From the IMG/VR virus record IMGVR_UViG_3300025770_000006, positions 109,359-173,358 of that record: 64,000 bases of DNA, one strand, 5' to 3'. The DNA comes from a virus. Positions 30,935-58,966 of the stretch are shown here, piece by piece. The notes under the pieces were generated by a model that saw nothing but the letters and a program-made list of their open reading frames with translations, searched no databases and had not been told where the DNA came from. Both the position numbers and the translations under genes were made by a program. Numbering within the stretch: the first letter of the stretch is position 1; each line of letters begins with the position of its first letter.

Positions 30935-32457
30935 GTGATATTTTAAGAAGCATACTCCCAGATGAGCCAAGAGGTGATGACCCTAAGCTCATGTTTCAAA
31001 ACTACTGTTCTCTTAAGGAGTCTGTCTTACGCTTTGACTTACCCTCAGAAGTCAATGTGTTCGAGTATGTTGAGGACTTCACTCTCAAGCATGGTCATTT
31101 ACCTTCGCAACAGGGAGTTAGAGAATACTTTGAAGAGAATCAATCCTTTGATGAAGCAGATCGTATTCAACAGATCGCTAACCGACCAGTCTCTTATCGA
31201 GGTGACTTTGTATCCCTAATCGAAAGACGAGTTGAAGAAGGTCGGATGACTAAGTTAGCTTCTGTTATGGCTGACGCTAAAGTCATCGCTCGTACAGGGC
31301 TTGAGGTTAAAGAAGGTCGGACAAAGAAGATCATTAAGGGTTCAAGGGATGCGGGGAACTTCCTACTCAATGAGATTGCTAAGATAAACACCCCTACCTT
31401 TGGCTCTCGTATCGGGGGAGAAATCTTAGGTGATGGTGAAGACTTTTGGAATGAGTATGAACGCACTTGTAATAAACAAACTGACATCCTCCCACAAACA
31501 GGGCTATCTATTATTGATAATGCTATCGGTGGGTTCAAGAGAAAAGAACTATACATCATGGCGGCTTTTACAGGTCACCTTAAATCTACCTCAAGTTTAA
31601 ATTGGGTTTACAATCAGTCTGTCTATGGAGGGACTGATACACTGTATTTCTCTCTTGAAATGCACTATACTCAATGTAGACGCATCATCTATGTCTATCA
31701 TTCTATGCACCCTAAGTTCCGAGATAAGCGTATCGCTTTGGGTATACAGCAGGGTCAAACAGATGCAGGTATTGATCCAGACAAGATCAAAAAGGGAACA
31801 CTTACAGAAGATGAGCGTTCTTACATGAGAGATGTCATTGAAGATCTCGACAACGGTATGAAACAAGGAAATTATGGGTCAATCCACATTGAGGTTGCCG
31901 ATCCCGATGTTCTTGACTTCACAGTTGAAAACATCCGTACTAGAGCCGAGCTACTTTATCAAAAGGCCCCTTTCAAGATGATGGTGGTAGACCATGCTTT
32001 ATTGGTCTCCCCTCGTAAGTGGGTAGCGTCCACTACGGATCGGTTAAATGAGGTCATCAGAGATCTTAAAAAGACATCTCTTGGATTTAATCGTGGTGAA
32101 GGTATTCCTGTCTTATGTCTGTTTCAGATCAGTCGTGAGGGTTATAAGTCAGCCGAGAAAAACGGTGGGTCTTACAACCTCACTCACTTGAGTTATGCAA
32201 ATGAAGCAGAGCGTTCTGCTGATCTTGTGATCTCAAGTTGGTATGGTGATGATAAGCGTGAGAACAGTTTGGTTAAATACCAATGCCTCAAGTCTCGTGA
32301 CCAAGCCCCCTTTGAAGAGTTTGACGCACAAATCGCTTGGCCTTATGGTCGTATCCTCGATATGCCTTTACAGTTCCAAACGAACACCTCTTATAAGAGC
32401 AAAGGTAAAAAGACTGAAGTGTTTGACGATCCTTTAGACGCTCTCATGGATCTGTAA
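30931..32457 (+). CDS. DnaB-like (SF4) replicative helicase
   Basis: TGLSIID...AFTGHLKS (Walker A), FSLEM, VVDH, LFQISRE, ERSADLV, KSRD. Confidence 0.88.
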   Translation: MSDILRSILPDEPRGDDPKLMFQNYCSLKESVLRFDLPSEVNVFEYVEDFTLKHGHLPSQQGVREYFEENQSFDEADRIQQIANRPVSYRGDFVSLIERRVEEGRMTKLASVMADAKVIARTGLEVKEGRTKKIIKGSRDAGNFLLNEIAKINTPTFGSRIGGEILGDGEDFWNEYERTCNKQTDILPQTGLSIIDNAIGGFKRKELYIMAAFTGHLKSTSSLNWVYNQSVYGGTDTLYFSLEMHYTQCRRIIYVYHSMHPKFRDKRIALGIQQGQTDAGIDPDKIKKGTLTEDERSYMRDVIEDLDNGMKQGNYGSIHIEVADPDVLDFTVENIRTRAELLYQKAPFKMMVVDHALLVSPRKWVASTTDRLNEVIRDLKKTSLGFNRGEGIPVLCLFQISREGYKSAEKNGGSYNLTHLSYANEAERSADLVISSWYGDDKRENSLVKYQCLKSRDQAPFEEFDAQIAWPYGRILDMPLQFQTNTSYKSKGKKTEVFDDPLDALMDL

Positions 32458-33677
32458 TGTTCTTTGAAATCGACAAACCTAAACTCCCACCCCTCAAGGA
32501 GCTGAACCTATTAGATAAGAACAACGAGTTCTCGATTCCGTCCGACCTGTGGGCTTCTATCTTAGACCAATACACGAAGCAAGAAATCATCGAGCATTTT
32601 TCGGATCTTATTGAGAACACTCCTGTGCCTTTCCCCTATAGAGTCTACGGTCTTGGAAATGTCCGTAAGGACTACCTAGAGCTTTGCTCTGATACAGTGA
32701 AATGGGAAGAAGAAAGATGGGAGGCACTAAGGACACCTAAAGACCTTCCTATGCTCTATAAGGACAGGCCGATACACCTCGATTACATAAGTAAAAAAGG
32801 ACTGTCTGTGTCGGATATGTTCACACAAGAAATACGAATGGAGTGTGGACATAAGTCAAGCCCATCGCCCACTCGACAATGGGATCGGGTTGGATATAAA
32901 TCAAAAGTTAGACCCATCTTAAAAGTCTTGATGGGATTGAACTTAAGTAGAACACTGAGGAGTGGTGTGTATAAGACTGCCATGTTTGATTGCCTCCGAC
33001 TTGGTAGGTACATGGCGAGTCAGTTTAAGCCCTCTTGTGCTAAAGCTATCTACGATTTCTTTGGTGCAAAGAAAGTGTTAGACTTCAGTGCTGGTTGGGG
33101 TGATAGGCTGGTTGGCTTTCATGCCTCTGATGCCGAGTCTTACATCGGCATAGATCCAAATACTAGACTCCACATTCAGTATAAAAAGATCTCCTCATTC
33201 TGTAACACCGATAAGGAGGTTAGGTTCATCTGCTCTCCTGCTGAAGATGCAGACTTATCTGATGTTAAAGTAGACTTCATTTTTACAAGCCCTCCTTATT
33301 TTGATACCGAGAGATATAGCCAAGAAGGAACTCAGTCGTGGAAGAGATACCCGACAATGAATGGATGGTTGAGTGGATTTCTTTACCCTACCCTCAATAA
33401 GAGTTGGGAAGCGTTAGAGGAAGGGGGTCGGATAGCAATCAATATAACTGATGTTCTTGATGGGAGTCATTACTTAGAAATCATCAAACCGATGATTGAG
33501 TACATGGAGGGCTTAGGTGCTACTTATGAAGGAGTAGTCGGATATAGGACGAAAAAGAGACCAGGCGAAAATCAAGGGATTGTTGGAGGGAGCGTGTTCT
33601 GCGAACCTATCTTCATTTGGTCTAAGGGGGAAGCTCTCGAACCTAAGTGGCATCAAGATAACTACTTCGGAGTTTGA
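32457..33677 (+). CDS. DNA amino-methyltransferase (N4-C or N6-A), paralog 1
   Basis: VLDFSAGWGDR (SAM binding) and FTSPPYF (catalytic) motifs. Confidence 0.85.
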   Translation: MFFEIDKPKLPPLKELNLLDKNNEFSIPSDLWASILDQYTKQEIIEHFSDLIENTPVPFPYRVYGLGNVRKDYLELCSDTVKWEEERWEALRTPKDLPMLYKDRPIHLDYISKKGLSVSDMFTQEIRMECGHKSSPSPTRQWDRVGYKSKVRPILKVLMGLNLSRTLRSGVYKTAMFDCLRLGRYMASQFKPSCAKAIYDFFGAKKVLDFSAGWGDRLVGFHASDAESYIGIDPNTRLHIQYKKISSFCNTDKEVRFICSPAEDADLSDVKVDFIFTSPPYFDTERYSQEGTQSWKRYPTMNGWLSGFLYPTLNKSWEALEEGGRIAINITDVLDGSHYLEIIKPMIEYMEGLGATYEGVVGYRTKKRPGENQGIVGGSVFCEPIFIWSKGEALEPKWHQDNYFGV

Positions 33678-33774
33678 CTATGAGACTCATTTATACTGTA
33701 GCCTTTATAAGTACAATACCTGTAAAGAACGCAGGGAAAGCCTGCCTCAATGCAGTCAATCTTTAGGAGAATGA

Positions 33775-34980
33775 ATGTTTTTTGATTATGAAAAAAAAGC
33801 CAAAGATAAGATAGACGAATATGAGGTTGTAAGAGGACAAGAGATCTTCATACAACCTCATCAGTGGTCAGAGATGCTTGATAAGTTTACTCGTGATGAG
33901 ATCATCACTTACTTATCAACTAAGATCGAAGGGATACCATTCCCATATACTAAATATACTCCTCAAGAGGTGCATCGTGATTGGTTAGATGTTCAGTCCG
34001 ACTATATGACACCAGTGGCAGGAGAGTGGGGATTACCTCGATGTCAGTTAGAGGATGCTCATACTTACAAAGGTAGGTATCTTTACTTCGCACCTAATAA
34101 CAAAGGACTCAAAGTCTCTAATCAGTTCACCGAGTTCGCAAGAGTATTAGTAGACCATCGAGAATATAAAAGTGCCATGACTCAATGGACTCGAATAGGT
34201 ATGAAGGGCGATAAGAGATACTTCCTTAGACCCTTTTTCACCCTATACGACAGGTCTAAAGGGGTTAATAGGAAAATGCTCTTTAACGCTATAAATATGT
34301 CTTATTACATACCTGCTCAGTTCAAACCAACACTCTCCAAAGCCATGTATAACTTCTTCGGGGCAAAGAAGGTCTTAGATTTCTCTATGGGATGGGGTGA
34401 TAGGCTAGTTGGTTTCCTCGCTTCTGACGCTCTGTCGTATGTTGGTATTGACCCTAATACAAAACTCCATGAGCCTTATGGACAAATAGATTCGTACTGT
34501 AATGCAAACAAAGAAACTAAGTTCATTTGTTCTCCAGCTGAGGATGCTGACCTAACTGATGTTAAAGTAGACTTTATCTTCACAAGCCCTCCTTACTTTG
34601 ATACCGAGAAGTATAGCCAAGAAGATACTCAGAGTTGGAAGAGATACCCCAAAACAGATGACTGGCTCAATGGATTTCTTTACCCGACACTCAAGAAATG
34701 TTGGGAGGTATTAGAAGACGGAGGACGGATCTGCGTCAATATCTCAGACAAGGTTTATGGTGATATACGAGTATGCCAACCCATGATTGAATACATGGAG
34801 TCATTAGGTGCTACTTACGAGGGAGTGATTGGTTATAGGATGTCCAAGAGACCAGGAAATCACCATTCATTGAACGAGGATCTGTCTAAGGTAAGTGTTT
34901 TTTGCGAACCTATTTTCATTTGGAGTAAGGGAGAAGCCCCCGAACCTAAATGGAATCAAGATAACTTCTTTGGGGTATAA
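33775..34980 (+). CDS. DNA amino-methyltransferase, paralog 2
   Basis: VLDFSMGWGDR and FTSPPYF. Confidence 0.85.
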   Translation: MFFDYEKKAKDKIDEYEVVRGQEIFIQPHQWSEMLDKFTRDEIITYLSTKIEGIPFPYTKYTPQEVHRDWLDVQSDYMTPVAGEWGLPRCQLEDAHTYKGRYLYFAPNNKGLKVSNQFTEFARVLVDHREYKSAMTQWTRIGMKGDKRYFLRPFFTLYDRSKGVNRKMLFNAINMSYYIPAQFKPTLSKAMYNFFGAKKVLDFSMGWGDRLVGFLASDALSYVGIDPNTKLHEPYGQIDSYCNANKETKFICSPAEDADLTDVKVDFIFTSPPYFDTEKYSQEDTQSWKRYPKTDDWLNGFLYPTLKKCWEVLEDGGRICVNISDKVYGDIRVCQPMIEYMESLGATYEGVIGYRMSKRPGNHHSLNEDLSKVSVFCEPIFIWSKGEAPEPKWNQDNFFGV

Positions 34981-35009
34981 TCCTATAAGGGTCTTGAAAG
35001 GATTTAAGT

Positions 35010-36242
35010 ATGTTCTTTGATTATGAAAAAACCAAAAAAGAGAACCTTGAAGAGTATGAGGTTTTGAGAGGGAATGAGATCTTTATCCCACCCCATCAGT
35101 GGCTAGAGATGGTAGATAGTTTTAGTAGAGATGAGATCACTGATTATCTGTCTGCAAAGATTGAAGATTTACCTTACCCCTTCACTAAGTACACACCACA
35201 AGAGATCAAGAAAGATTGGTTAGAGGTTCAGTCCGATTACATGATCCCGATTGAGGGTGCTTGGGGATTGCCACGATGTCAGTTAGACGAAGACCATACT
35301 TACAAAGGTAGGTATATTTACTTCGCACCTAATAACAAAGGACTCAAAGTCTCTAATCAATATAGTGAACCTATGCGTTTAGAGGTAGACCATAAGCAGT
35401 TCCCAAGTGCAATGAGACAATGGACACGAACTAACCTCAAGTCCAAAAAGAGAGCGTTCCTTAGACCTTTATGGACATTGTATGATCCGTCAAAAGGTGT
35501 GAACAGCAAGATACTTGTAAACGCTATCGGTATGTCTGGTTATATCCCAGCACAGTTCAAACCTACTTTAGCTAAGGCGATGTATAACTTCTTCGGGGCT
35601 AAAAGAGTATTGGATTTCTCTATGGGATGGGGCGATAGATTAGTTGGATTCCTATCTTCTGATGCCGAGTCCTATGTAGGATTAGACCCTAATACAAAAC
35701 TCCATGAGCCTTATCAGAAGATCGCTGATTATTGTTCTACGAGTAAGACCACTAGGTTCATCTGCTCTCCTGCCGAAGATGCAGACCTGTCTGATGTTAA
35801 AGTAGACTTCGTTTTCACGAGTCCACCTTATTTCGACACCGAGAAATATAGTCAGGAGGAGACTCAATCATGGAAGCGTTATCCAGAGACTGATGATTGG
35901 CTGAATGGGTTTCTTTACCCAACCCTCAAGAAATGTTGGGATTGCTTAGAAGAGGGAGGGAGGATATGCGTAAACATCTCTGATAAAGTCAGAGGAAACA
36001 TACGAGTGTGTCAGCCCATGATTGAGTATATGGAGTCATTAGGTGCTACTTATGAAGGCGTGATTGGTTATCGGATGGCAAAGAGGCCAGGAAACCACCA
36101 CTCTTTAAATGATGAGTTGTCCAAGATGGATGTTTTCTGTGAGCCGATTTTCATTTGGAGTAAGGGAGAAGCCCCCGAACCTAAATGGAATCAAGATACT
36201 TACTTTGGGGTGTGTGAGGTCGGTCATGTGGGGAAACCTTGA
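35010..36242 (+). CDS. DNA amino-methyltransferase, paralog 3
   Basis: VLDFSMGWGDR and FTSPPYF; close duplicate of paralog 2. Confidence 0.85.
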   Translation: MFFDYEKTKKENLEEYEVLRGNEIFIPPHQWLEMVDSFSRDEITDYLSAKIEDLPYPFTKYTPQEIKKDWLEVQSDYMIPIEGAWGLPRCQLDEDHTYKGRYIYFAPNNKGLKVSNQYSEPMRLEVDHKQFPSAMRQWTRTNLKSKKRAFLRPLWTLYDPSKGVNSKILVNAIGMSGYIPAQFKPTLAKAMYNFFGAKRVLDFSMGWGDRLVGFLSSDAESYVGLDPNTKLHEPYQKIADYCSTSKTTRFICSPAEDADLSDVKVDFVFTSPPYFDTEKYSQEETQSWKRYPETDDWLNGFLYPTLKKCWDCLEEGGRICVNISDKVRGNIRVCQPMIEYMESLGATYEGVIGYRMAKRPGNHHSLNDELSKMDVFCEPIFIWSKGEAPEPKWNQDTYFGVCEVGHVGKP

Positions 36243-37152
36243 TGTATCTAACTTAGATGTATTGACTCCATACATCGAGTCTGCTTTAGAGAGAAATCTC
36301 CTGTATTACAATCTCAACCCTTTTGAATTCCTAGCCTTTAAAACAAAAGGCAACTTGTTCAAGATTGAAAACAATACCTTACATTTTGGTTGGCATGGTG
36401 TAATCGGAGCGAGGTTCTTAAAGCTCTACTTCCCCCCTATTCACTTATACGGTGATGAAGAGATTGAAAGGGAATCTGTTTTAAAAGCTACAAATGAGGG
36501 ATGCTCTTTGTGGATCGAAAAGGAGCACTCGAAGGCTTTAGGTGTCAAAGCCAAAACTATCTCGGAGTATCGAGGAGCTTATCAGCCCATATACCATAGA
36601 GACTATCAACTAGCGGGTAAGAAATATAAAAATATGAGGAGAGATAGAAATATCCTCCATTCTCTCATTGAGAGTGGTGAGTTAGAGTTTGTATTTGACT
36701 ACCCCTTAAAAGGTCTTACAGGACTCAATAATGCTTGGCTAAGTCAGACTGGTCGTAAAAGGTCTGTGTTTGACTTTTGTCTTCAGAACGAAAAGCACCT
36801 CACACACAGGATCAAAAACCTAACCCTACTTAACAGAGATGGTGAGCCTATCACATCCTCTCTGTACGCTATATATTCACCAGATAAATGGCATTGTATA
36901 GGTGCGATCTCGGACTATGGGAAGATACCTATTGGTGGGTTGCAAAGACAGTCTGATCTGTATCTGTTTGAGTTGGAGGAAAAAGTCAACTTAGTGATGG
37001 TTGGTGGGTATAGCTATAAAGAGCTGAAGTTCTCTAAATTGGCATTACCACACAGTGTTTATAGGTTAGGCACACTACCTTCCAATATAACTGTGACCAA
37101 AGATATATGGGAGTCCTTTAGACCGAAGCCTCAGACCTATTTTGGAGTGTGA
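36226..37152 (+). CDS. DUF2156 / aminoacyl-tRNA-dependent transferase-like (Fem/MprF C-terminal GNAT fold) protein, paralog A
   Basis: ATG at 36226 after GAGGT; FPPIHLYGDEE; IY...LAGKKYKNMRRDRN resembles the DUF2156 L.G.KY...RN..N motif. Confidence 0.55.
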   Translation: MWGNLDVSNLDVLTPYIESALERNLLYYNLNPFEFLAFKTKGNLFKIENNTLHFGWHGVIGARFLKLYFPPIHLYGDEEIERESVLKATNEGCSLWIEKEHSKALGVKAKTISEYRGAYQPIYHRDYQLAGKKYKNMRRDRNILHSLIESGELEFVFDYPLKGLTGLNNAWLSQTGRKRSVFDFCLQNEKHLTHRIKNLTLLNRDGEPITSSLYAIYSPDKWHCIGAISDYGKIPIGGLQRQSDLYLFELEEKVNLVMVGGYSYKELKFSKLALPHSVYRLGTLPSNITVTKDIWESFRPKPQTYFGV

Positions 37153-37153
37153 A

Positions 37154-38077
37154 ATGTGGAACTACCTAACCCCCAAAGACTTTGAGACATTGATACCTTA
37201 CTTAAAGAGTGCAATACAACGAGGGTGGAAGTATTACGATCTCTGTGTGATAGATCGTATGTGGTGTTATAATAATCAAATCCTCTTCAAGATAGAGAAC
37301 GACATATTATATGTGTCTAGGTTGCACCGCTTCATTAATAACTTAATCCATAAGATGCAGTTCCCTCCAATCCACTTGTACGGTGATGAGGAACTTGAAA
37401 AGAAAGCCTTGCTAGGAGCTTTGGAAATAGGTGTGTCCGTAAACGCCACAAAGCAAGTCGCAAAAGACCTCGGATTAAAATACACCTTAATGAGTCAATG
37501 GGATGGTGGGTGTGAAGTGGTCTATACAAAAGACCATCTCAAAATGGACGGTAAAAAATATGCAAAGCGAAGAGGTGAGTTAAACAAAATCAAAAGGTTG
37601 ATTTCTAGCGGTCAACTCATGGTCAAACTCGATAGTGATTTAGATTCTTTGTACGGTCTGTTTCAAACATGGAAAAGGCAACAAGGGTACAAAACAGGGA
37701 TGTATGAATACCTCCTTAAAAACAAAGAATACTTACCCTACTTAAAAGTCTTTAGTGTGCGTAACTCTGATAAGGTAGTGTTTGCATCTGTGTTCCTAAA
37801 CATCGACAAATCGACTTGGATTTCCCCTTGCTCAATGACGGATTATGAAAATACAGTTAGTGGGTTTCAAAGACTCTCTAAGATCCTCCTGTTAGATATG
37901 CAGGAAGATTTAGAAACGATCATCGAAGGTGGGTGGGTCACAGAAGAAATCAAAAGAGGAAAGACATTGATCCCTCACGAGATATGGAGGATCGCTAAAA
38001 TCATAAGCCCCAAAAAGCTCTCGAAGATTGAGTGGGAGAGTTTTAAGCCAAAACCGAATACCTACTTTGGAGTTTAA
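37154..38077 (+). CDS. DUF2156 / aminoacyl-tRNA-dependent transferase-like protein, paralog B
   Basis: FPPIHLYGDEE and VY...MDGKKYAKRRGELN; paralog of the preceding gene. Confidence 0.55.
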   Translation: MWNYLTPKDFETLIPYLKSAIQRGWKYYDLCVIDRMWCYNNQILFKIENDILYVSRLHRFINNLIHKMQFPPIHLYGDEELEKKALLGALEIGVSVNATKQVAKDLGLKYTLMSQWDGGCEVVYTKDHLKMDGKKYAKRRGELNKIKRLISSGQLMVKLDSDLDSLYGLFQTWKRQQGYKTGMYEYLLKNKEYLPYLKVFSVRNSDKVVFASVFLNIDKSTWISPCSMTDYENTVSGFQRLSKILLLDMQEDLETIIEGGWVTEEIKRGKTLIPHEIWRIAKIISPKKLSKIEWESFKPKPNTYFGV

Positions 38078-38078
38078 T

Positions 38079-40091
38079 ATGTTATTTGAAACAACATTCA
38101 ACGCTGAGAGTTTCTACAAGAAGTTTACACCAATCTTAAAAGAGATCTCTGTACCAGAAAACTTAGTGCCGTTTGCAGAGTGCTTATCCGAGTATCACGA
38201 ACTAGACTTAGATATTTCCGTTGAGCCTAAAGTATTTGTAGATCCACAAGATGGTGGCGACCAAAAAAAAGCCATCGTTCTTTTATCTGGAGGGATTGAT
38301 AGTGCTTGGTGTCTCTTATGGGCTTTAGAACAAGGTCTGAATCCACAACCTTTATTTGTGGATGGGCTGAACGCTTCTCAAAACTCTCGTGAGCGTAAAG
38401 CTGTCCAAGTCTTATGTGATAAGCTAGACCTGCCCCTCATCACATATAAACACCCAACCCATCTCAAAAAGCTACATAAAGATCCGTCTAATATATTCAA
38501 GATACCAGAGAGCTTTGTGAAACTACAGTATGCTCTGATGGCAATCAAAGATGACATACGAAAAGAGGGCATAGCAGGGGTCATTGTCACCTGCCCTACT
38601 AACCAACCCGAATACATTGACCCTACTGCACCTAAGAAAGAAAATGGGGAACCGCTGACATGGTTTCAAGACTCAGAAGAGTCTATGGAAACTTTCTTAC
38701 CGTTCCTCTCCGATTATATTGGGTGGGGTTTTAAAGGATACTACCCTGTCACCATGAAAGAGCAGAAGATAAAAGCTCTAATGGACAAAGGGATCTTTGA
38801 AGATACCTGCTCGTGCGTATGCAATCCTATGTTCTTTTCGGGTCATCGTAAGAGATCAAAACCCAAGTATTCCAATATGTGCGGCGTGTGTTGGAAGTGC
38901 AAAGAAAACCTAGCTTTCATCAGTAAACTTAACCGAGATGATGAAGTCGTTGAAGATGAGATGCCAGAAGAGCCTCAAATGAAACCTTGGCAAAAAGGAT
39001 ATGAGTTAGATTATCTTAAAAGCGTAGAGGGTCAGTTCAACGCTTTTAATGACCTGTGTATTTCCCCATTCCTACAGATGAAAAAAAATAAAGTCGCAGA
39101 CCACTTACACGATGGCACTTTAATCCTTAAAGACGGATTTAGGTGCATCCTTAAAAAGTCTAAAACTAGAACGAGTATAAAAGTGTACTCGAATAGGGAT
39201 CACACCCTCGCTTATAAAGATGTAGGCGAGTTCGCTATGGGTAAGTTAGTCATTGATGATGTGAGTGAGTTTAAAGAATACTGCGATAAGATTGATCAGA
39301 ACATTTGGGTCATCAGCTTTGACTCGATTGAGAAAGATCTTCTCTCATGCGGGTTTGTTAAGCTAGGATATAAATACACCTCCTTTGGTGATGATCTCAC
39401 TGTGTTCCTTTTGCAAAAGCAAATCGACTTTTTCGGTACGAACACAAATAGACTAATCTTTAATGACCCTTTAGAAAGAGCTACCTGTGTGAAACTCGAC
39501 TCCAACTTTGAGGTTGAGTCCATCGCAGATAAGTTAGCCGCTTACGAATTTAAGAAGCACTACTCCAACTACAATAGTGGTGGGTGGTCAGCTATCAGTC
39601 TAAGAGGGTTTAGCGATGACCCCTCCTTCATTATCAAACCAGAAGAGATGAATGATAAATGGACGGAGCAAAACTCAGAGACAGATTTCTATCTGAGAGA
39701 CACCGAAGCGTATGAATATTTTAGCGAGGTAAGGGAGATCATAAACACAGTCGCCCCAAACCAAAAGATCGAGAGGGTGAGAATAATGAAGCTCTCTGAA
39801 GGATCTGAGATTAAAAAGCATACTGATCTAGTAGATCCAGATTGTGGTGTCGGGGTAGGAGAAACAGCAAGGTTTCATGTGCCGATTAAAACAAAAGATG
39901 CTGTCTTTGAGGTATGGGGACAAAATGGTAAAGAGTCATTCTCTTTAGAGAAGGGTTCTCTATGGTATCTCGACACAAGAAAACCACACCGAGTCATTAA
40001 CCCAACCAGCGATAGATACCATCTTGTTTTTGATGTCTTTGTTGATCAAGAAATAAGAGAACTTATCAAGAGATGCTTAAATGTTCTTTGA
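38079..40091 (+). CDS. QueC-like PP-loop ATPase fused to an Asp/Asn beta-hydroxylase-type 2OG-Fe(II) oxygenase
   Basis: IVLLSGGIDS; TCSC...CGVCWKC; C-terminal RVRIMKL...HTD...RFHVPI...KPHRVIN...RYHLVFD. Confidence 0.75.
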   Translation: MLFETTFNAESFYKKFTPILKEISVPENLVPFAECLSEYHELDLDISVEPKVFVDPQDGGDQKKAIVLLSGGIDSAWCLLWALEQGLNPQPLFVDGLNASQNSRERKAVQVLCDKLDLPLITYKHPTHLKKLHKDPSNIFKIPESFVKLQYALMAIKDDIRKEGIAGVIVTCPTNQPEYIDPTAPKKENGEPLTWFQDSEESMETFLPFLSDYIGWGFKGYYPVTMKEQKIKALMDKGIFEDTCSCVCNPMFFSGHRKRSKPKYSNMCGVCWKCKENLAFISKLNRDDEVVEDEMPEEPQMKPWQKGYELDYLKSVEGQFNAFNDLCISPFLQMKKNKVADHLHDGTLILKDGFRCILKKSKTRTSIKVYSNRDHTLAYKDVGEFAMGKLVIDDVSEFKEYCDKIDQNIWVISFDSIEKDLLSCGFVKLGYKYTSFGDDLTVFLLQKQIDFFGTNTNRLIFNDPLERATCVKLDSNFEVESIADKLAAYEFKKHYSNYNSGGWSAISLRGFSDDPSFIIKPEEMNDKWTEQNSETDFYLRDTEAYEYFSEVREIINTVAPNQKIERVRIMKLSEGSEIKKHTDLVDPDCGVGVGETARFHVPIKTKDAVFEVWGQNGKESFSLEKGSLWYLDTRKPHRVINPTSDRYHLVFDVFVDQEIRELIKRCLNVL

Positions 40092-41256
40092 ATATAAGAC
40101 TGAACTTAACTCACTAGACGACATTGAATATATTAAAGATGGCTATCTTCACATACGCCCTAACGAATGGAGTATGCTTCGTGAGAAATATACTAAGGAA
40201 GATATCAAAGACCATATCGCACCCATCGTTGAGTCTTTACCTTATCCTTACTCTGAGTACACAACGGAGTCTGCAAAGAAGGACTTCATAAGCCTCAAAG
40301 CGAAAAAAGAGCCATTCGTATTTGATGAATGGGTAGCACCACGCCAAGCTACTCCCCTAGAGACTACTTATCTAGGTAAGCACATTTACCTCAACAGCTA
40401 TTACAAAGGTAAAGAGGTGTCTAACCTGTTCACTCAAGAACAGAGGATGAAATGTAGCTATCGCACACAAGGTAACTCACCTTATGACGAATGGGTCAAC
40501 GCTAGTAAGAATAACTCGTTCCTACGATGCTTCTTCGGTATCTGTGAAAATGACATTTATGAGAGGGGTGGGGTCAATAAACAAACCCTTAGAAGAGCAT
40601 TGAAGATGCACACATATATGGCTAGTCAGTTCAAAGCTGAGTCTGCTAAAGCTCTCTATGATCTGTTCCAATCTAAAAGCGTCTTAGATTTCTCAGCAGG
40701 TTGGGGTGATAGGTTAGTAGGCTTCCTAGCTTCAAATGCCGACTCCTATATTGGGATTGATCCTAATACTAAGCTCCATGAACCATATCAGCAAATCGTC
40801 AACCTCTGTGATACAGGTAAAGAGGTTAGGTTTATTTGCTCACCTGCTGAAAATGCTGACCTCTCTGATGTCAAAGTAGACTTTATCTTTACGAGCCCAC
40901 CATACTTTGACATCGAAAGGTACAGTACAGAGTCCACACAATCATGGAAGCGATACCCAGACCTTAAGGATTGGGTCAATGATTTCTTACTCGCTACCCT
41001 CACCAAGTGCTGGTCTGCACTTAAAGATGGTGGCCGGATAGCCATCAACATTGCGGATAAAAAAGGAGAGGACATCTGCACTCCTATGCTTGAACACATG
41101 AAGAATTTAGGGGCTACATATGAAGGGGTGATAGGATATCGAATGTCTGAGCGTGGTGGTCAGAAAACAGATTGCCCTACTTGTGAGCCGATCTTTATTT
41201 GGAGTAAGGGTTTAACACCCGAACCTAAATGGAATTATAATGAGTATTTTTTTTGA
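40081..41256 (+). CDS. DNA amino-methyltransferase, paralog 4
   Basis: VLDFSAGWGDR and FTSPPYF. Confidence 0.85.
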   Translation: MFFEYKTELNSLDDIEYIKDGYLHIRPNEWSMLREKYTKEDIKDHIAPIVESLPYPYSEYTTESAKKDFISLKAKKEPFVFDEWVAPRQATPLETTYLGKHIYLNSYYKGKEVSNLFTQEQRMKCSYRTQGNSPYDEWVNASKNNSFLRCFFGICENDIYERGGVNKQTLRRALKMHTYMASQFKAESAKALYDLFQSKSVLDFSAGWGDRLVGFLASNADSYIGIDPNTKLHEPYQQIVNLCDTGKEVRFICSPAENADLSDVKVDFIFTSPPYFDIERYSTESTQSWKRYPDLKDWVNDFLLATLTKCWSALKDGGRIAINIADKKGEDICTPMLEHMKNLGATYEGVIGYRMSERGGQKTDCPTCEPIFIWSKGLTPEPKWNYNEYFF

Positions 41257-41265
41257 AGAGGTGTT

Positions 41266-42393
41266 ATGCAGTTATTTAACTACAAAAAAATAGGAGGTCA
41301 GACCCTTAAATCAAAAGTGGTCTTAGATCCTGTCGTTGAAAAAGTAGCAAGTGAGTCCGACTATAAGTTCAATGGTGAAACTTCATTTGTTGTACCTGAG
41401 TTTGATGTTCCTCCCGACTTCACATTAGGAGTGATATATGGGCCGAGTGGTTCGGGTAAGTCTACCCTCTTAAAAGAATTCGGAGAAGAAGCTGTTGGAG
41501 CATGGGATCAATCTTTAGCTATAGCTTCTCAAGTAGACCCAAACCTACTCTTGAGACTCGGATTATCGTCTATCCCCTCTCTTTGCAGACCATATCATGT
41601 CTTAAGCACAGGTGAGAAACATAGAGCTGATATAGCTAAAAACCTAACAAATGGATGTGTCATAGATGAGTTCACTTCTGTGTGTAATCGAGACTTCGCT
41701 CAATCAATCTCTGTGGGACTGAGGAAAGTCATAGATCATTACGGATATAAAAATGTGGTCATCGCTACCTGCCACGAAGATGTCATAAATTGGTTAGAAC
41801 CAGATTGGGTTGCTAACACATTAACGAGGCGGCTCGTAGAAGGGAGGTCGGAAAGGCGATCTTCAACTTTTAGAGTTCTACCTTGCTCAGTCGAAGTCTG
41901 GTCAATCTTCAGCGACCATCATTATCTGAGTGGAGATCTCAACAAGGGTGCTCATTGTTGGCTACTCATCAACGAAAATAATACAATCTGTGGCTTCATG
42001 TCTGCGATTGCATTACCAGGAGGGAATGTACGCAATGCTTGGAGAACACATCGAACAGTAATCTTACCCGACTTTCAAGGTATGGGATTAGGGTCAAGAC
42101 TGTCTAATGCTATAGCTAAGATGTACTACGATAAAGGATGTCGATTCTTCGGTAAAACTGCACACCCAAAGCTCGGTGAACATCGAAACAACTCTGAACT
42201 ATGGAAACCCACAAGGAATAATAGAGTCAGCAACAAGAGTATGTCCTATGAAAAAATGAAGGACTCCAAATACTCTAAAAAGTTTCTGCAAAAGCACAAC
42301 AATAGAGTATGTTATGCACATGAATATATTGGCGATGGAACTATGAACTTGAAAGGTCAAGAGCCAAAAAAAGAGCATACTCCATTCTTTTGA
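41266..42393 (+). CDS. ABC-type ATPase fused to a GNAT (Mom-like) acetyltransferase
   Basis: GPSGSGKS, LSTGE, IDEFTS, TCHED; then HHYL and RTVILPDFQGMGLG (GNAT motif A). Confidence 0.85.
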   Translation: MQLFNYKKIGGQTLKSKVVLDPVVEKVASESDYKFNGETSFVVPEFDVPPDFTLGVIYGPSGSGKSTLLKEFGEEAVGAWDQSLAIASQVDPNLLLRLGLSSIPSLCRPYHVLSTGEKHRADIAKNLTNGCVIDEFTSVCNRDFAQSISVGLRKVIDHYGYKNVVIATCHEDVINWLEPDWVANTLTRRLVEGRSERRSSTFRVLPCSVEVWSIFSDHHYLSGDLNKGAHCWLLINENNTICGFMSAIALPGGNVRNAWRTHRTVILPDFQGMGLGSRLSNAIAKMYYDKGCRFFGKTAHPKLGEHRNNSELWKPTRNNRVSNKSMSYEKMKDSKYSKKFLQKHNNRVCYAHEYIGDGTMNLKGQEPKKEHTPFF

Positions 42394-42423
42394 TTTCTTA
42401 TAACCATAGTGAGGAGTGAGACT

Positions 42424-42771
42424 ATGAGTTTAGAAGAACTACTAAAAAGAAATCGGGTGCAACTGCAAAAGAAGCAGGGCGACTATCTGTACTTCATCCA
42501 GTCAAGCAAAACAGGGATGATAAAGATAGGTCGATCTAAACACCCTAAGAAGAGACTCAAACAACTTCAAACAGGGAACTCAAATACGCTCCGTATTATC
42601 GCCTCATTTGAAGGTTTAGGGTGGAGGGAACCCCACCTACACGAAGACCTCAAAAAGTGGCGTATACGCCAAAATGGAGAGTGGTTTCACCATGATTGTG
42701 TCGGGTCGATCCCTACTGATCTATATGAGATGATCGAATGGGGAGCGTTTGATGACTGGTGGAAACCTTAA
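42424..42771 (+). CDS. GIY-YIG-like (T5orf172/MUG113) nuclease-domain protein
   Basis: YFIQ...IKIGRSKHPKKRLKQLQTGN...GEWF. Confidence 0.85.
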   Translation: MSLEELLKRNRVQLQKKQGDYLYFIQSSKTGMIKIGRSKHPKKRLKQLQTGNSNTLRIIASFEGLGWREPHLHEDLKKWRIRQNGEWFHHDCVGSIPTDLYEMIEWGAFDDWWKP

Positions 42772-42788
42772 CGAGTAAAAAGAAACTA

Positions 42789-42935
42789 TTAACAATGATC
42801 CTCTTCTATTAAAGGTTGCGAATCTATCTTTCTCAACATCTCCTTTGGGTCAAGCTCATCAACAGAAGAATTATTCTGCGAGATTGACCCACAAGAGAAA
42901 AGAAAAAAGAGGAATAAAGAAAAAAGAAGTCTCAT
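42789..42935 (-). CDS. Small lipoprotein (48 aa), absent from the ORF track
   Basis: MRLLFSLFLFFLFS-CGSISQNNSSVDELDPKEMLRKIDSQPLIEEDHC*; promoter-like motif at 42977-42990. Confidence 0.6.
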   Translation of the reverse strand: MRLLFSLFLFFLFSCGSISQNNSSVDELDPKEMLRKIDSQPLIEEDHC

Positions 42936-42991
42936 GTGTTGTACCCTAACTTATTATCAATATCTCTAAAAAAGGGTATAAAGAAACTACA

Positions 42992-43025
42992 AATCCTCGT
43001 CATATTCCTGTTGAGCGAGGATTAA
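42992..43025. repeat. 34-bp third copy of the actin-gene 3' end (palindromic core)
   Basis: aatcctcgtcatattcctgttgagcgaggattaa, identical to 43504-43537 and 44114-44147. Confidence 0.95.
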
Positions 43026-43438
43026 GCCTCTTTTACTTCAATCTCTTTATGGTCATAGATAACTTGGAAAGTCATCTTATGAACATAATTTTCAACCCCA
43101 AAAAGTTGAAGTTTTCTGGGTCTATCCATCGTACACTTAACCTCAACTATTAGATCCCCAGCAAGATTAATAGATCGATACCCAAGAACTTTAATGTCTA
43201 AGTCGTCTGGTGTGTCTTCGGGAATATCAAAATCAAAAAAACCCTCGATGCCCAAGAAAAAGTCATATAAAGCGTCTTCTACCCAGTTTGATCTAACTCT
43301 TGACCCCGATAGTTTGCTTAAATCTTTTGCTATCGTGGTGGATAGGCTCTTGAGGGTTTCTTCCCGACTTGATTGTTTTTCAAGTCTAGCGATTCTTGAC
43401 TCAAGGTTACGGATAATTTCACTAGCTGATCTTCTCAT
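43022..43438 (-). CDS. Leader-tagged protein (MRRSASEIIRNLESRIARLEKQS) with unknown cargo
   Basis: Leader plus full upstream element; the stop codon lies inside the repeat. Confidence 0.8.
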   Translation of the reverse strand: MRRSASEIIRNLESRIARLEKQSSREETLKSLSTTIAKDLSKLSGSRVRSNWVEDALYDFFLGIEGFFDFDIPEDTPDDLDIKVLGYRSINLAGDLIVEVKCTMDRPRKLQLFGVENYVHKMTFQVIYDHKEIEVKEA

Positions 43439-43501
43439 GGTTTACTCCAGTGGTTTAAGGTTAATGAGATCACTTATGAGAAGATATAAAGAAACTACAA
43501 A

Positions 43502-43637
43502 TCAATCCTCGTCATATTCCTGTTGAGCGAGGATTAACATACCCTTAGAGACAGCGTGAAGCGGGTCAGAAGCATGACGAACCTCTGAGATCTCGATAGG
43601 GGAACGCTTTTTCTTAGTCTCAAAGACCTCCCTAAAG
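43502..43637. repeat. 136-bp displaced copy of the actin-gene 3' end
   Basis: 130/136 identical to 44112-44247. Confidence 0.95.
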
Positions 43638-43647
43638 TTATTATTTT

Positions 43648-44037
43648 TTAACCAACAATGACAGTGTTAGGTCGATCAACCATGTTTGTTTGATACCTGT
43701 CCATTAACTCCGCATCAGTATCGAGGATGGCTTTGTTAATTTCTACTTCAACGCAAAAATGCACTTTGCTTGACGAGATTGTCTTTACATTAGAGACAAT
43801 ACCCATTTGCCGAAGGTTTACCATATCAGACATGAAAGAGGAAACTGCTGATTTTAGAGTAGATGGATAAAGGTGCGTGAAGCAATACTCATTAGCATGG
43901 GAGTTAAAATTCATTAAAATAACACATTCATCTCCGTCAATTATTCTGGTATTGTATGCCGCAGTTTTACTTTTACCTTCAAGTCGTGCGATCCTAGACT
44001 CAAGATTTCTGATTACTTCACTAGCTGATCTTTTCAT
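43648..44037 (-). CDS. Leader-tagged protein (MKRSASEVIRNLESRIARLEGKSKTA) with unknown cargo
   Basis: ATG at 44037, GGAG RBS, full upstream element to 44100. Confidence 0.8.
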   Translation of the reverse strand: MKRSASEVIRNLESRIARLEGKSKTAAYNTRIIDGDECVILMNFNSHANEYCFTHLYPSTLKSAVSSFMSDMVNLRQMGIVSNVKTISSSKVHFCVEVEINKAILDTDAELMDRYQTNMVDRPNTVIVG

Positions 44038-44111
44038 TATAGTTCTCCATTTTGTTAAGGTTAAAGAGATCACTTAAGACCAATTATAAATAAACTATTA
44101 ACCTTGACAGC

Positions 44112-45113
44112 TCAATCCTCGTCATATTCCTGTTGAGCGAGGATTAACATACCCTTAGAGACAGCATGGAGAGGGTCTGACGCATGACGAACCTCTGAGA
44201 TCTCGATAGGGAAACGCTTTTTCTTAGTCTCAAAGACCTCCCTAAAGAAGTCCATGAATCCACCTGCGAGACTTGTACCACCACCCACTACGATTGGAAT
44301 GGGTTTGTTAAGGGTGAGGTGTCCACCTTTCATCACAAACTGCTGTGCGATGTTATCTAAAGCGTGTTCAATAAGAGCCTTATAATAGAACGAGATCGCT
44401 TCTTCTTCTCTATTCTTAGGTGCTTTAAGGTCAATGCCCTTCTCTTTTACCGCACACATTTTAGAAGCTGTTGCACCTACTGATCGAGCCGCTCCTTGAT
44501 CAATCCAATCACCACCACGAGCAACGGAGAAGGATAACCCCTCAATGGTGCTGATAGCGAGAGCGATATTGGTCATACCAGAACCGAAACTAATCCCGAC
44601 ACCAGAAAAACCTTCCTTTGCAGTCTCTGCGAAGACGATAGCCATAGCTTCGTTGGCGGGGTGTGCAGTATATCCACATTCTTGAACGATGCGAGTGAAT
44701 ACACCCTTATGATAAACAACATCCATATTAGCGTCCACAGGAGCCGCAGGGATTGAGAAATAACAATGCTCTCCCTCATGGCTAGGGTCACCGAGAACAT
44801 CTTTGACCATATGTCCGAGAACGGTAAGGGAGTCGATCTCATCAGCAGAGATAAGACCTGCTTTAAGGGGTCTACGACCTTCTCTACCGAACATATTAGC
44901 TACTTCCATAGCTTCATCCCCAAGTACAAGTAGATTGTCGTCAGCTTCGATGTATGACACCGAGCCGAGTTTGAGCATCTTTTTAGCCGAAGATGGGAGA
45001 TCAATAAAGAGGTCACGCATCCTTCTTAGAGTTACTTCATTTTTCTTAGCACCACTCATGCGAGCAGACACCAAGTTCATAGTTCCAATGTCAAGTCCTA
45101 CACCTTTACTCAT
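44112..45113 (-). CDS. Actin-like ATPase (MreB/MamK/ParM superfamily)
   Basis: Phosphate-1 GLDIGTMN, connect NEAMA, phosphate-2 SFGSGMTN, adenosine VGGGTS, AVSKG. Confidence 0.85.
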   Translation of the reverse strand: MSKGVGLDIGTMNLVSARMSGAKKNEVTLRRMRDLFIDLPSSAKKMLKLGSVSYIEADDNLLVLGDEAMEVANMFGREGRRPLKAGLISADEIDSLTVLGHMVKDVLGDPSHEGEHCYFSIPAAPVDANMDVVYHKGVFTRIVQECGYTAHPANEAMAIVFAETAKEGFSGVGISFGSGMTNIALAISTIEGLSFSVARGGDWIDQGAARSVGATASKMCAVKEKGIDLKAPKNREEEAISFYYKALIEHALDNIAQQFVMKGGHLTLNKPIPIVVGGGTSLAGGFMDFFREVFETKKKRFPIEISEVRHASDPLHAVSKGMLILAQQEYDED

Positions 45114-49181: not shown

Positions 49182-49297
49182 CTTGTTTTCAAGTCGTGCT
49201 ATTCTTGATTCGAGTCTGAAGCTGATCTTTTCATAATGGTTTCTCCATTTGGTTAAGGTTAAAGAGATCACTTAAGATCAAGTATAAATAAACTATC
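49182..49297 (-). pseudogene. Empty, frameshifted copy of the promoter-RBS-leader element (no cargo)
   Basis: ATG at 49234: MKRSAS, then a deletion of about 13 nt, then LESRIARLENK in another frame. The upstream 56 bp are 53/56 identical to 44043-44098. Confidence 0.85.
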
Positions 49298-49301
49298 AAA
49301 C

Positions 49302-57919: not shown

Positions 57920-58966
57920 TTACCCCCTGTTTAGATATGAAGAAGCAACACGACTAGCCCTGCGTTTATTGATGTCTCTTAATACGAGATCGACCACGCT
58001 TAGTTGAGCCGATGGTTTGACATTGGGCAACAGACCTGCAATCTCAATCGCTAACTCTTTTCTCGACAACCCGCTTTGAGCGAGGTTTAAGATTTGAGAT
58101 ACCTGTTCATCTGAAACATCTGTCTCTGACTGCAAGCAAGGCAGTAAGGAAGCCATTTTAGAGGTTGTTGAGGGTAAGTGTCTGATGATCTCTGGGAATG
58201 TGGAGATACCTTTACAAGTACGGATTAAGTCAGCCCCCTCAAACAAGAACGCAGTACATTCTCCTTGAGCGTTCTTTTCAAAATCAAGGGAATACTGTCC
58301 AACACCTGGAACTGAGACTTTGTAAACAAGATATATCCCGTCCACATCTGCTTTACATGACCACTTATCAAGCATGGTCATGTAGCCTAAGTGCTTCACA
58401 CTTGATACGATCTCTTTTACAGAGCTTACAAAGTCATCTCTAGTAGCCATGATTTGTCTCCCATCTTCTGTTATTTCACGCTCAATCATAAGAGCAGGTC
58501 TGCGAACTAAGTAGTTAGGCCACTTCTCGTACCACTTAGCATAGAAGTCATCTTCGGAGACTTCACGAGTGGTCTTGTCGGGGTTGGGTAGATTCGGGTC
58601 AGCCACATGAACTACATAGCTTCCTTTTTCACCTGTAACATCAAAGATCAAACTAGCATGACTCCAATCCCTACCTTCGGGATTCCATGCAATAAGTACA
58701 GGCTTACCCTCATCTGTCCACGCTTTTACTTGGGTCAAAGTAGCTGGTGTAGTGAGGGTAGCTCGACACCCAAAATACTGAGCACAAGCTAAGACTTCTT
58801 CCCACCTAGCCCCTTGCATAGGTTTTGCACCAATCACTTGATTGACTTGATCCTCGTTGCACTTAACGCCAACAGCATTTAGAGCCATACAGGTGGAGGT
58901 CGCCACACAACTAAACTGTGAACGCTGTCGTATTGGGCTCACATCTGCTTTTGCTGATCTTCTCAT
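57920..58966 (-). CDS. C39-like (papain-fold) peptidase-domain protein beginning with a truncated leader (MRRSA)
   Basis: Q..QFSCVAT (Cys), WSHASLI (His), VADPN (Asp); promoter-like motif at 59004-59017. Confidence 0.75.
   Translation of the reverse strand: MRRSAKADVSPIRQRSQFSCVATSTCMALNAVGVKCNEDQVNQVIGAKPMQGARWEEVLACAQYFGCRATLTTPATLTQVKAWTDEGKPVLIAWNPEGRDWSHASLIFDVTGEKGSYVVHVADPNLPNPDKTTREVSEDDFYAKWYEKWPNYLVRRPALMIEREITEDGRQIMATRDDFVSSVKEIVSSVKHLGYMTMLDKWSCKADVDGIYLVYKVSVPGVGQYSLDFEKNAQGECTAFLFEGADLIRTCKGISTFPEIIRHLPSTTSKMASLLPCLQSETDVSDEQVSQILNLAQSGLSRKELAIEIAGLLPNVKPSAQLSVVDLVLRDINKRRASRVASSYLNRG

Follow-up and report, generated by a model that had tools for sequence, protein, structure and literature searches.

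Described gene-shuffling systems and the actin-associated array

The subject of this analysis is an array of small genes and partial gene copies that lies directly behind an actin-like ATPase gene on the minus strand of a 64,000-nt window, the whole stretch analysed from the virus record IMGVR_UViG_3300025770_000006. The array comprises two small ORFans that share an N-terminal leader (cargo A and cargo B), each followed by a displaced copy of the actin 3' end (136 and 34 nt, respectively; called scars below), and an untagged lipoprotein-like gene. Since the array occurs among relatives in the variants predicted for it, it is real and records serial insertions next to the actin-like gene. Of the systems described to date, the one that it appears to resemble most closely is the modular shuffling of T4-type phages (Arbiol et al., 2010; Comeau et al., 2014). 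There, repeated stem-loop/promoter (PeSL) units mark the limits of insertions and deletions among close relatives, and mini-circles arise from them with no recombinase dedicated to the task (PMC2839356; PMC4122927). The authors of these studies likened the PeSL layout to integrons and tied the shuffling to the polymorphic internal-protein locus of T4 (PMC2839356; PMC4122927). As in the T4-type phages, small ORFans lie in a hyperplastic region, where each appears to be bounded by a repeated unit of hairpin and promoter-like motif, and insertions, deletions and replacements between close relatives map to these repeats with no dedicated recombinase. However, the hairpin of the present locus is not dispersed between genes: it duplicates the coding 3' end of a single conserved gene and is restricted to the locus, where the hairpin plus promoter-like motif is present in three copies. 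Furthermore, the homology reaches approximately 60 nt into leader-coding sequence, the scars record the order of insertion, and the hairpin is no canonical intrinsic terminator. The PeSL idea is thereby extended to marine huge phages of an unrelated clade, as well as to repeats that derive from coding sequence.

Integrative elements that enter the 3' end of a tRNA, tmRNA or protein gene, carrying a replacement 3' end with them, offer a second comparison. Here, too, the target gene stays intact, because an incoming 3' end has replaced the original one, which is left as a partial direct repeat at the far junction, and successive insertions result in tandem arrays. The inserted unit, however, is one small gene instead of a self-mobilising element, and its host is the genome of a lytic-type huge phage instead of a bacterial chromosome. 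Neither a site-specific integrase nor a fixed attachment core was found, the duplicated length varying from 26 to 136 nt (136, 41, 34 and 26 nt). The likeness to integrons lies in single-gene cassettes that are parted by hairpin-forming repeats and added nearest to a fixed platform. In contrast to integrons, no IntI-type tyrosine recombinase was found beside the array, the repeats copy the platform gene whereas attC sites are diverse, and each cassette appears to bring its own promoter-like motif whereas integron cassettes are promoterless and rely on a common platform promoter. In addition, junction positions are not fixed like those at the G|TT of integron core sites, although two of them coincide at G|TTAATCC. 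An earlier note on this DNA, made from the sequence alone, had described the array as an integron-like accretion without visible integrase; no integrase is indeed visible, but only in its outcome does the process resemble integrons and integrating elements.

Phages test new genes in hyperplastic regions, but the single steps of this can seldom be observed. The stretch 3' of the actin-like gene is such a hyperplastic hotspot, and the clade that hosts it consists of uncultured marine huge phages with lytic-type genomes of about 310–375 kb. Sequence searches retrieved relatives as uncultured marine phage contigs of 312–376 kb, and relatives of the actin-like protein were found at approximately 70 loci (51–99% amino acid identity). 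The phage GenBank collection yielded only a single weak DNA match (a 485-kb uncultured phage, 66% over 354 nt). All coordinates below refer to the window and the array is read on the minus strand; WIN denotes the window's own locus and L-numbers denote the loci from relatives that were compared with it. On rechecking of the coordinates, the layout with its tagged cassettes and its 136- and 34-nt copies was as the earlier note had given it:

44112–45113, minus strand: actin-like ATPase gene, 333 aa, full-length match to Pfam PF25216 Volactin (E = 5e-75)
44112–44247, minus strand: functional actin 3' end (allele a), source of the repeats according to the repeat alignment, with the hairpin at 44114–44147
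44038–44111, minus strand: first intergenic region (IG1), 74 nt, with promoter-like motif (44085–44097; motif scan), conserved spacer and GGAG ribosome-binding site
43648–44037, minus strand: cargo A, open reading frame (ORF) of a 129-aa ORFan with the shared leader (codons 43978–44037), no Pfam or PHROGs match
43638–43647, minus strand: A-rich 10-nt joint from the cargo-A stop to the displaced actin fragment, shared with L054
43502–43637, minus strand: displaced 136-nt copy of the actin 3' end (allele b), untranslated, 130 of 136 nt identical to 44112–44247
43439–43501, minus strand: second intergenic region (IG2), 63 nt, with promoter-like motif (43485–43497; motif scan), spacer and ribosome-binding site
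43022–43438, minus strand: cargo B, ORF of a 138-aa ORFan with the shared leader, its TAA stop inside the hairpin foot
42992–43025, minus strand: third copy, 34 nt, hairpin part of the actin 3' end, overlapping the cargo-B stop, 34 of 34 nt identical to 44114–44147
42977–42989, minus strand: promoter-like motif before the lipoprotein gene, exact match to the motif upstream of cargo B
42789–42935, minus strand: small lipoprotein-like ORF, 48 aa, untagged, last gene of the array
42776–42788, minus strand: promoter-like motif right after the lipoprotein stop, pointing into the convergent gene, one mismatch to the motif

The actin-like gene is the conserved gene beside which the cassettes gather. 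Each cassette appears to be preceded by the promoter-like motif and a ribosome-binding site, and the motif has 16 matches in the window compared with 3.7 expected. IG1 of WIN is 88.6% identical to the intergenic region downstream of actin in L001/L080, and the junction of actin stop and IG2 also follows the intact actin gene in L002, L003, L059 and L079 and the displaced copy in L054. The A-rich joint at 43638–43647 is the illegitimate junction. At the far end of the array, homologous DNA of the lipoprotein-like ORF was absent from the fetched relatives, an identical contig excepted, and in the repeat analysis positions 42776–42798 matched the IG1 region at 83%; the motif at 42776–42788 is probably the remnant of a lost next cassette.

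Displaced actin 3' ends and the haplotypes of relatives

The 136-nt copy belongs to a repeat family that spans 141 nt at 94% identity in the repeat search. It differs from the functional actin 3' end at six positions, which fall exactly where the earlier note had placed them: five are synonymous third-codon changes (44181, 44178, 44172, 44169 and 44166) and one exchanges Phe for Ser (44212, T>C). This pattern is not a product of chance. Only 20.7% of random single changes in this region would be synonymous, giving P ~4e-4 for five synonymous changes out of five, and the clustering of five of the six changes within 16 nt has P ~0.0025. Each of the synonymous states of allele b is common among intact actin alleles, and all five occur together in the intact actin gene of L059; the displaced copy thus was once a working allele, as had been proposed from the clustered differences. 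The Phe>Ser change was found in the window's copy only, in no intact allele and not in the displaced copy of L054, and it therefore arose after the fragment had left translation. A translation of the displaced copy (43502–43637) as a fusion to cargo A was rejected, because the A-run differs in length between WIN and L054 and no start codon lies ahead of the copy. A further actin allele, at L115:2990–3030, has LKNSKSSVLV in place of PIEI within the region that is duplicated in the window, so the actin 3' end tolerates change.

The third copy, given as 34 bp in the earlier note, is identical in 34 of 34 nt, and its extent could be refined to hairpin plus promoter motif (53 nt at 92%, with a 3-nt indel). 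A longer block of scar, promoter and leader is common to both units of the array (270 nt at 84%), and the units are similar in length (610 and 512 nt). These features would also be compatible with an origin without incoming DNA, in which the segment that starts at the actin 3' end and closes with the first gene was duplicated in tandem in situ and the two copies then diverged. Such an origin is highly improbable, however, as the divergence between the units is very uneven, with 96% identity in the actin piece, 79% in the intergenic region and 83% in the leader, while the cargo bodies are unrelated. Moreover, IG1 and IG2 each follow intact actin genes in different relatives, and either cargo can be found behind actin in the absence of the other.

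Loci with no, one and two cassettes, which were to be expected among relatives if the earlier note was correct, were all found. Empty sites (L053, L056 and L008/L075–L077) have a gap of 7–139 nt between actin and the downstream anchor gene, compared with 547–1729 nt in other relatives, and most close relatives carry after actin a conserved tagged gene whose product ends in LYIRF (the LYIRF gene). Sites that are empty, that hold cargo B only, cargo A only, or both all exist, which bears out successive insertions at one hotspot. In the L054/L109 lineage, actin and cargo A share 88 and 90% nucleotide identity with WIN, respectively, and six assemblies have the same A-rich cargo-A junction, in L054 with one extra A. 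A junction shared in this way, one A apart, points to a single origin and leaves no room for a conserved fusion of reading frames. The displaced copy of L054 is identical to that of WIN at 132 of 136 positions and is followed by IG2 and the LYIRF gene. In L054/L109, this succession of displaced copy, IG2 and LYIRF gene can be aligned nucleotide by nucleotide to L055/L058, where IG2 and the LYIRF gene follow the 3' end of an intact actin gene, and L059 and L121 have an intact actin gene, IG2 and a cargo-B homologue in the order that is found behind the displaced copy of WIN. From this collinearity it follows that the displaced fragment is the resident end and that the functional end came with cargo A. 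This sustains the claim that an actin 3' end was brought in with the incoming DNA and that the resident end was displaced downstream, and the expected intact allele matching the displaced copy is that of L059, directly followed by the cargo-B homologue. In L115/L116, cargo A stands behind actin with a promoter and without a scar, and these loci plausibly represent the donor state (actin, cargo A, promoter, next gene).

The two long actin copies of the window differ at allelic sites, as the sequences of two co-occurring strains would, and could in principle have been joined by an assembly chimera. The probability of such an artefact is practically negligible: an independent ENA contig (L019/L052) has an identical array, the same junction was assembled six times in a lineage whose actin gene is 88% identical at the nucleotide level, the cargo-A cluster is represented on 73 contigs, and the cargo proteins occur on 57–73 contigs of up to 310 kb. 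Assemblers, besides, collapse repeats and do not duplicate them.

Altogether, three unrelated genes were added in the actin-proximal slot, each with a scar. These are cargo A (136 nt), cargo B (34 nt, decayed to 26 nt in L059/L121 by an internal deletion) and a 152-aa gene in L079/L106/L107, the hairpin scar of which measures 41 nt including a 7-nt duplication and has a stem mismatch in L079. The cargo-A junction is shared by WIN and L054, and the cargo-B junction by WIN, L059/L121, L118 and L119; as each is the same across loci, each stems from a single event. Among the loci compared, the same cassette can precede different genes. Cargo B and its hairpin are followed by the lipoprotein gene in WIN, the LYIRF gene in L121, the anchor gene in L119 and an 87-aa gene in L118, and cargo A with its scar stands before cargo B (WIN) or the LYIRF gene (L054). 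Presence and absence of cargo A are combined with either cargo B or the LYIRF gene downstream in all four possible ways (WIN, L054, L059 and L055), which requires exchange inside the interval of scar, promoter and leader. The breakpoints of the empty, one- and two-cassette haplotypes fall in the hairpin, promoter or leader repeats; those 3' of the hairpin differ between haplotypes, and the cargo-A junction is located 102 nt upstream of the hairpin. With the scars and the natural variants (empty, donor-like, one- and two-cassette, and the same cassette before different genes), a stepwise record is available of how a huge phage adds ORFans behind a conserved gene without breaking that gene. The locus is an unusually well-documented case of phage genome plasticity through natural intermediates, in which ordinary gene shuffling is made readable.

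The synteny of WIN with its relatives is kept upstream of actin and ends at the array (window 32457–42771 compared with L001–L003). Past actin, L001–L003 encode the anchor gene, a SWIM-like 124-aa gene, a zinc-ribbon gene and three paralogues of ~240 aa. None of these downstream genes is present in the window, which has a convergent DNA-modification operon there instead.

Probable recombination between relatives and its alternatives

The cassettes probably were acquired by unequal or illegitimate recombination between co-infecting relatives and subsequently spread by homologous recombination. General together with illegitimate phage recombination is likely to explain the data more simply than site-specific recombination does. 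We infer that co-infecting relatives with different first genes after actin would recombine out of register, the crossover linking the terminus of the first gene in one phage with an internal position of the actin 3' end in the other. The product would be an intact actin gene with the incoming 3' end, the incoming gene, and the resident's old fragment with its own promoter, leader and gene. Repetition of this event would stack cassettes with the newest nearest to actin; in WIN, cargo B would have been inserted first (34-nt scar) and cargo A later (136-nt scar). A cassette and its scar could then spread by homologous recombination, for which the actin gene would provide the left arm and the repeat of scar, promoter and leader (270 nt at 84%) the right arm, so that the leftover actin fragment might act as a homology arm that travels with the cassette. 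Loss of cassettes, or their excision as small circles, should also be possible through these repeats.

Several observations weigh against this scenario. With 34 nt, the right arm is short for homologous exchange to be efficient. The identity profile of WIN and L054 is a mosaic along its whole length, and a high identity of the cassette block therefore would be no proof of transfer by itself; a recent cassette-specific horizontal transfer judged by identity alone was rejected for this reason. Moreover, cargo B and the unrelated 152-aa gene join their hairpin copy at the same nucleotide, G|TTAATCC, and both take their stop codon from the TAA of this motif. Random illegitimate crossovers would seldom coincide in this way; a step directed by the hairpin, or strong selection acting on the junction, may be involved. 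Finally, the three hairpins of the window are identical in 34 of 34 nt despite the 24% nucleotide divergence of cargo B from its L059 homologue, and either gene conversion or constraint is needed to account for this. The joins at the same nucleotide may reflect polymerase stalling or template switching at the base of the hairpin; alternatively, a compact junction that already supplies a stop codon may have been selected for. Palindromes are associated with rearrangement endpoints.

Alternatively, small circles consisting of an actin 3' piece, promoter, leader and cargo might be inserted by a single homologous crossover of the Campbell type. They would be excised by recombination between flanking repeats, and re-entry in the actin 3' end of another genome would duplicate sequence on both sides. 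The direct actin 3' repeats that flank each cassette are the expected product of such a single crossover, and mini-circles formed at PeSL units have been documented in RB49/phi1 (PMC2839356). A possible trace of a circle is found in L118:1–626, where the final 41 nt of cargo B and the hairpin open the contig, directly ahead of a different promoter region and an entire cargo B with its hairpin; the joint could belong to a tandem pair of cargo-B cassettes or to an excised circle. However, L118 is one contig of 1.4 kb, and the repeat is at the contig end, where assembly artefacts are common. The first circle, furthermore, would still need the illegitimate joint between cargo end and actin interior, so that circles add a step and remove none, and we regard insertion by this route as unlikely.

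The hairpin itself invites another explanation. The 34-nt core is predicted to fold as a hairpin of 8+3 bp, and a 32-nt hairpin pattern has three occurrences in the window versus none expected. The pairing is conserved in 88% of cells across 27 distinct relatives, compared with at most 47% for slid partners, and one pair covaries between AU and GC. A canonical intrinsic terminator was rejected, as the consensus scan did not call one and the fold is only modestly above shuffled sequences in two of three contexts (z -1.1, -1.7 and -2.9). Structure- or site-specific recombination at the hairpin foot by an unrecognised phage enzyme, either a GIY-YIG-type nuclease or a topoisomerase-IB-like protein, could capture genes in an integron-like manner. 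In that case, the hairpin in the last 34 nt of the actin-like gene would be a true recombination site that captures leader-tagged genes by means of a non-integron enzyme. On this reading, the locus would be the equivalent of an integron, carried by a phage and lacking an integrase, that gathers genes for tagged, possibly virion-loaded proteins. The identical join of two unrelated cargos at G|TTAATCC and the conservation of the hairpin with its covarying pair speak for an enzyme of this kind. Candidates also exist: a gene of the GIY-YIG clan (T5orf172/MUG113; 42409–42771, plus strand) adjoins the array in convergent orientation, another GIY-YIG gene is located two genes after actin at L009:6809–7126, and relatives encode a topoisomerase-IB-like protein. 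Free-standing nucleases of the GIY-YIG type stimulate local recombination in T4-type phages.

Nevertheless, both the involvement of such an enzyme and the function of the hairpin as a recombination site are decidedly improbable. The 3'-side breakpoints vary, the cargo-A junction is 102 nt off the hairpin, the scars decay (by the internal deletion in L059/L121 and by the 7-nt duplication and stem mismatch in L079), and the hairpin is found nowhere else in the window although tagged cassettes are, the other tagged-gene arrays there being without any hairpin. Cargo A, in addition, also occurs without a scar (L115/L116). A profile search gave no integrase match among the neighbouring genes of the array, and no resolvase was detected in two complete relatives. 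Varied breakpoints, the distant cargo-A junction, scar decay, confinement of the hairpin and the lack of a resolvase together argue against a site-specific system and leave recombination between co-infecting relatives as the favoured reading. The only match to the integrase family or the tyrosine-recombinase fold in the two complete relatives is the topoisomerase-IB-like protein, which is encoded far from the locus and has no homologue in the window; as an integrase, this apparent match was rejected. The protein has 476 aa (L125:716–2146 in G001, a relative of 375.7 kb) and scores 48 bits with Topoisom_I and 28 bits with Phage_integrase.

Leader-tagged cargo genes

Cargo A and cargo B have the leader MRRSASEIIRNLESRIARLE in common. 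Nine genes of the window clearly bear this leader (eleven matches in all), and 31 and 27 matches were found in two complete relatives; the cassettes belong to a leader family with about 30 members in each genome. Beyond the leader, their protein bodies are mutually unrelated. Pfam and PHROGs yielded no match for cargo A, cargo B, the lipoprotein, eight other tagged proteins and most neighbouring late proteins. Among 5.8 billion proteins, cargo A is represented by three protein clusters and cargo B by four; exact-protein look-ups of cargo B and of the 139-aa form of L059 had none on record, but the cluster search did find both. The cargo-B homologues share 65–78% amino acid identity (76% nucleotide identity for that of L059), and their 3' junction is always the same. 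AlphaFold models of cargo A and cargo B, each built from three to four sequences, were too poor for use, with a mean predicted local distance difference test (pLDDT) score of 56 and 47, respectively, and only the leader helix (residues 5–19) was consistently predicted.

The leader probably is a sorting or processing tag. The T4 internal-protein genes bear a capsid-targeting sequence (Mullaney and Black, 1996, as cited in PMC9958956) and their locus is polymorphic (Repoila et al., 1994, as cited in PMC4122927). The present genes likewise encode unrelated small proteins with a short shared N-terminal peptide at a polymorphic, recombination-prone locus. The leader differs in its length of ~20 residues, its predicted helical structure, its presence in ~30 genes per genome and its lack of the T4 sequence. 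Proteins with the T4 capsid-targeting sequence are loaded into the prohead, where the tag is removed by the head protease. No head protease was identified among the window proteins that were profile-scanned. The leader marks ~30 genes per genome as mobile cargo, and its function, be it sorting, packaging or processing, is a concrete target for experiments.

A run of three tandem leader-tagged genes (61904 to 59030) is ended by a gene at 57920–58966 on the minus strand, the product of which starts with MRRSA like the leader and continues with a Peptidase_C39-like domain (26 bits at a cut-off of 24, residues 8–124). The gene is kept in the two complete relatives with 93 and 64% identity. C39 peptidases remove N-terminal leaders, and by analogy the gene product is a candidate leader-processing enzyme.

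The conserved LYIRF gene varies in its length, with 0 to ~115 extra residues between leader and core (L003:7066–7779; L085:752–1429). In L003, the insert ends in a second, internal leader remnant (VARLERQA...), which suggests that this gene is an in-frame fusion of two neighbouring cassettes. Elsewhere in the window, IG1 and the leader codons are recopied at 49188–49299 on the minus strand (80% identity over 125 nt). In this copy, an internal deletion shifts the reading frame of the leader, which stops after 11 codons, leaving a leader-only scar between two unrelated genes.

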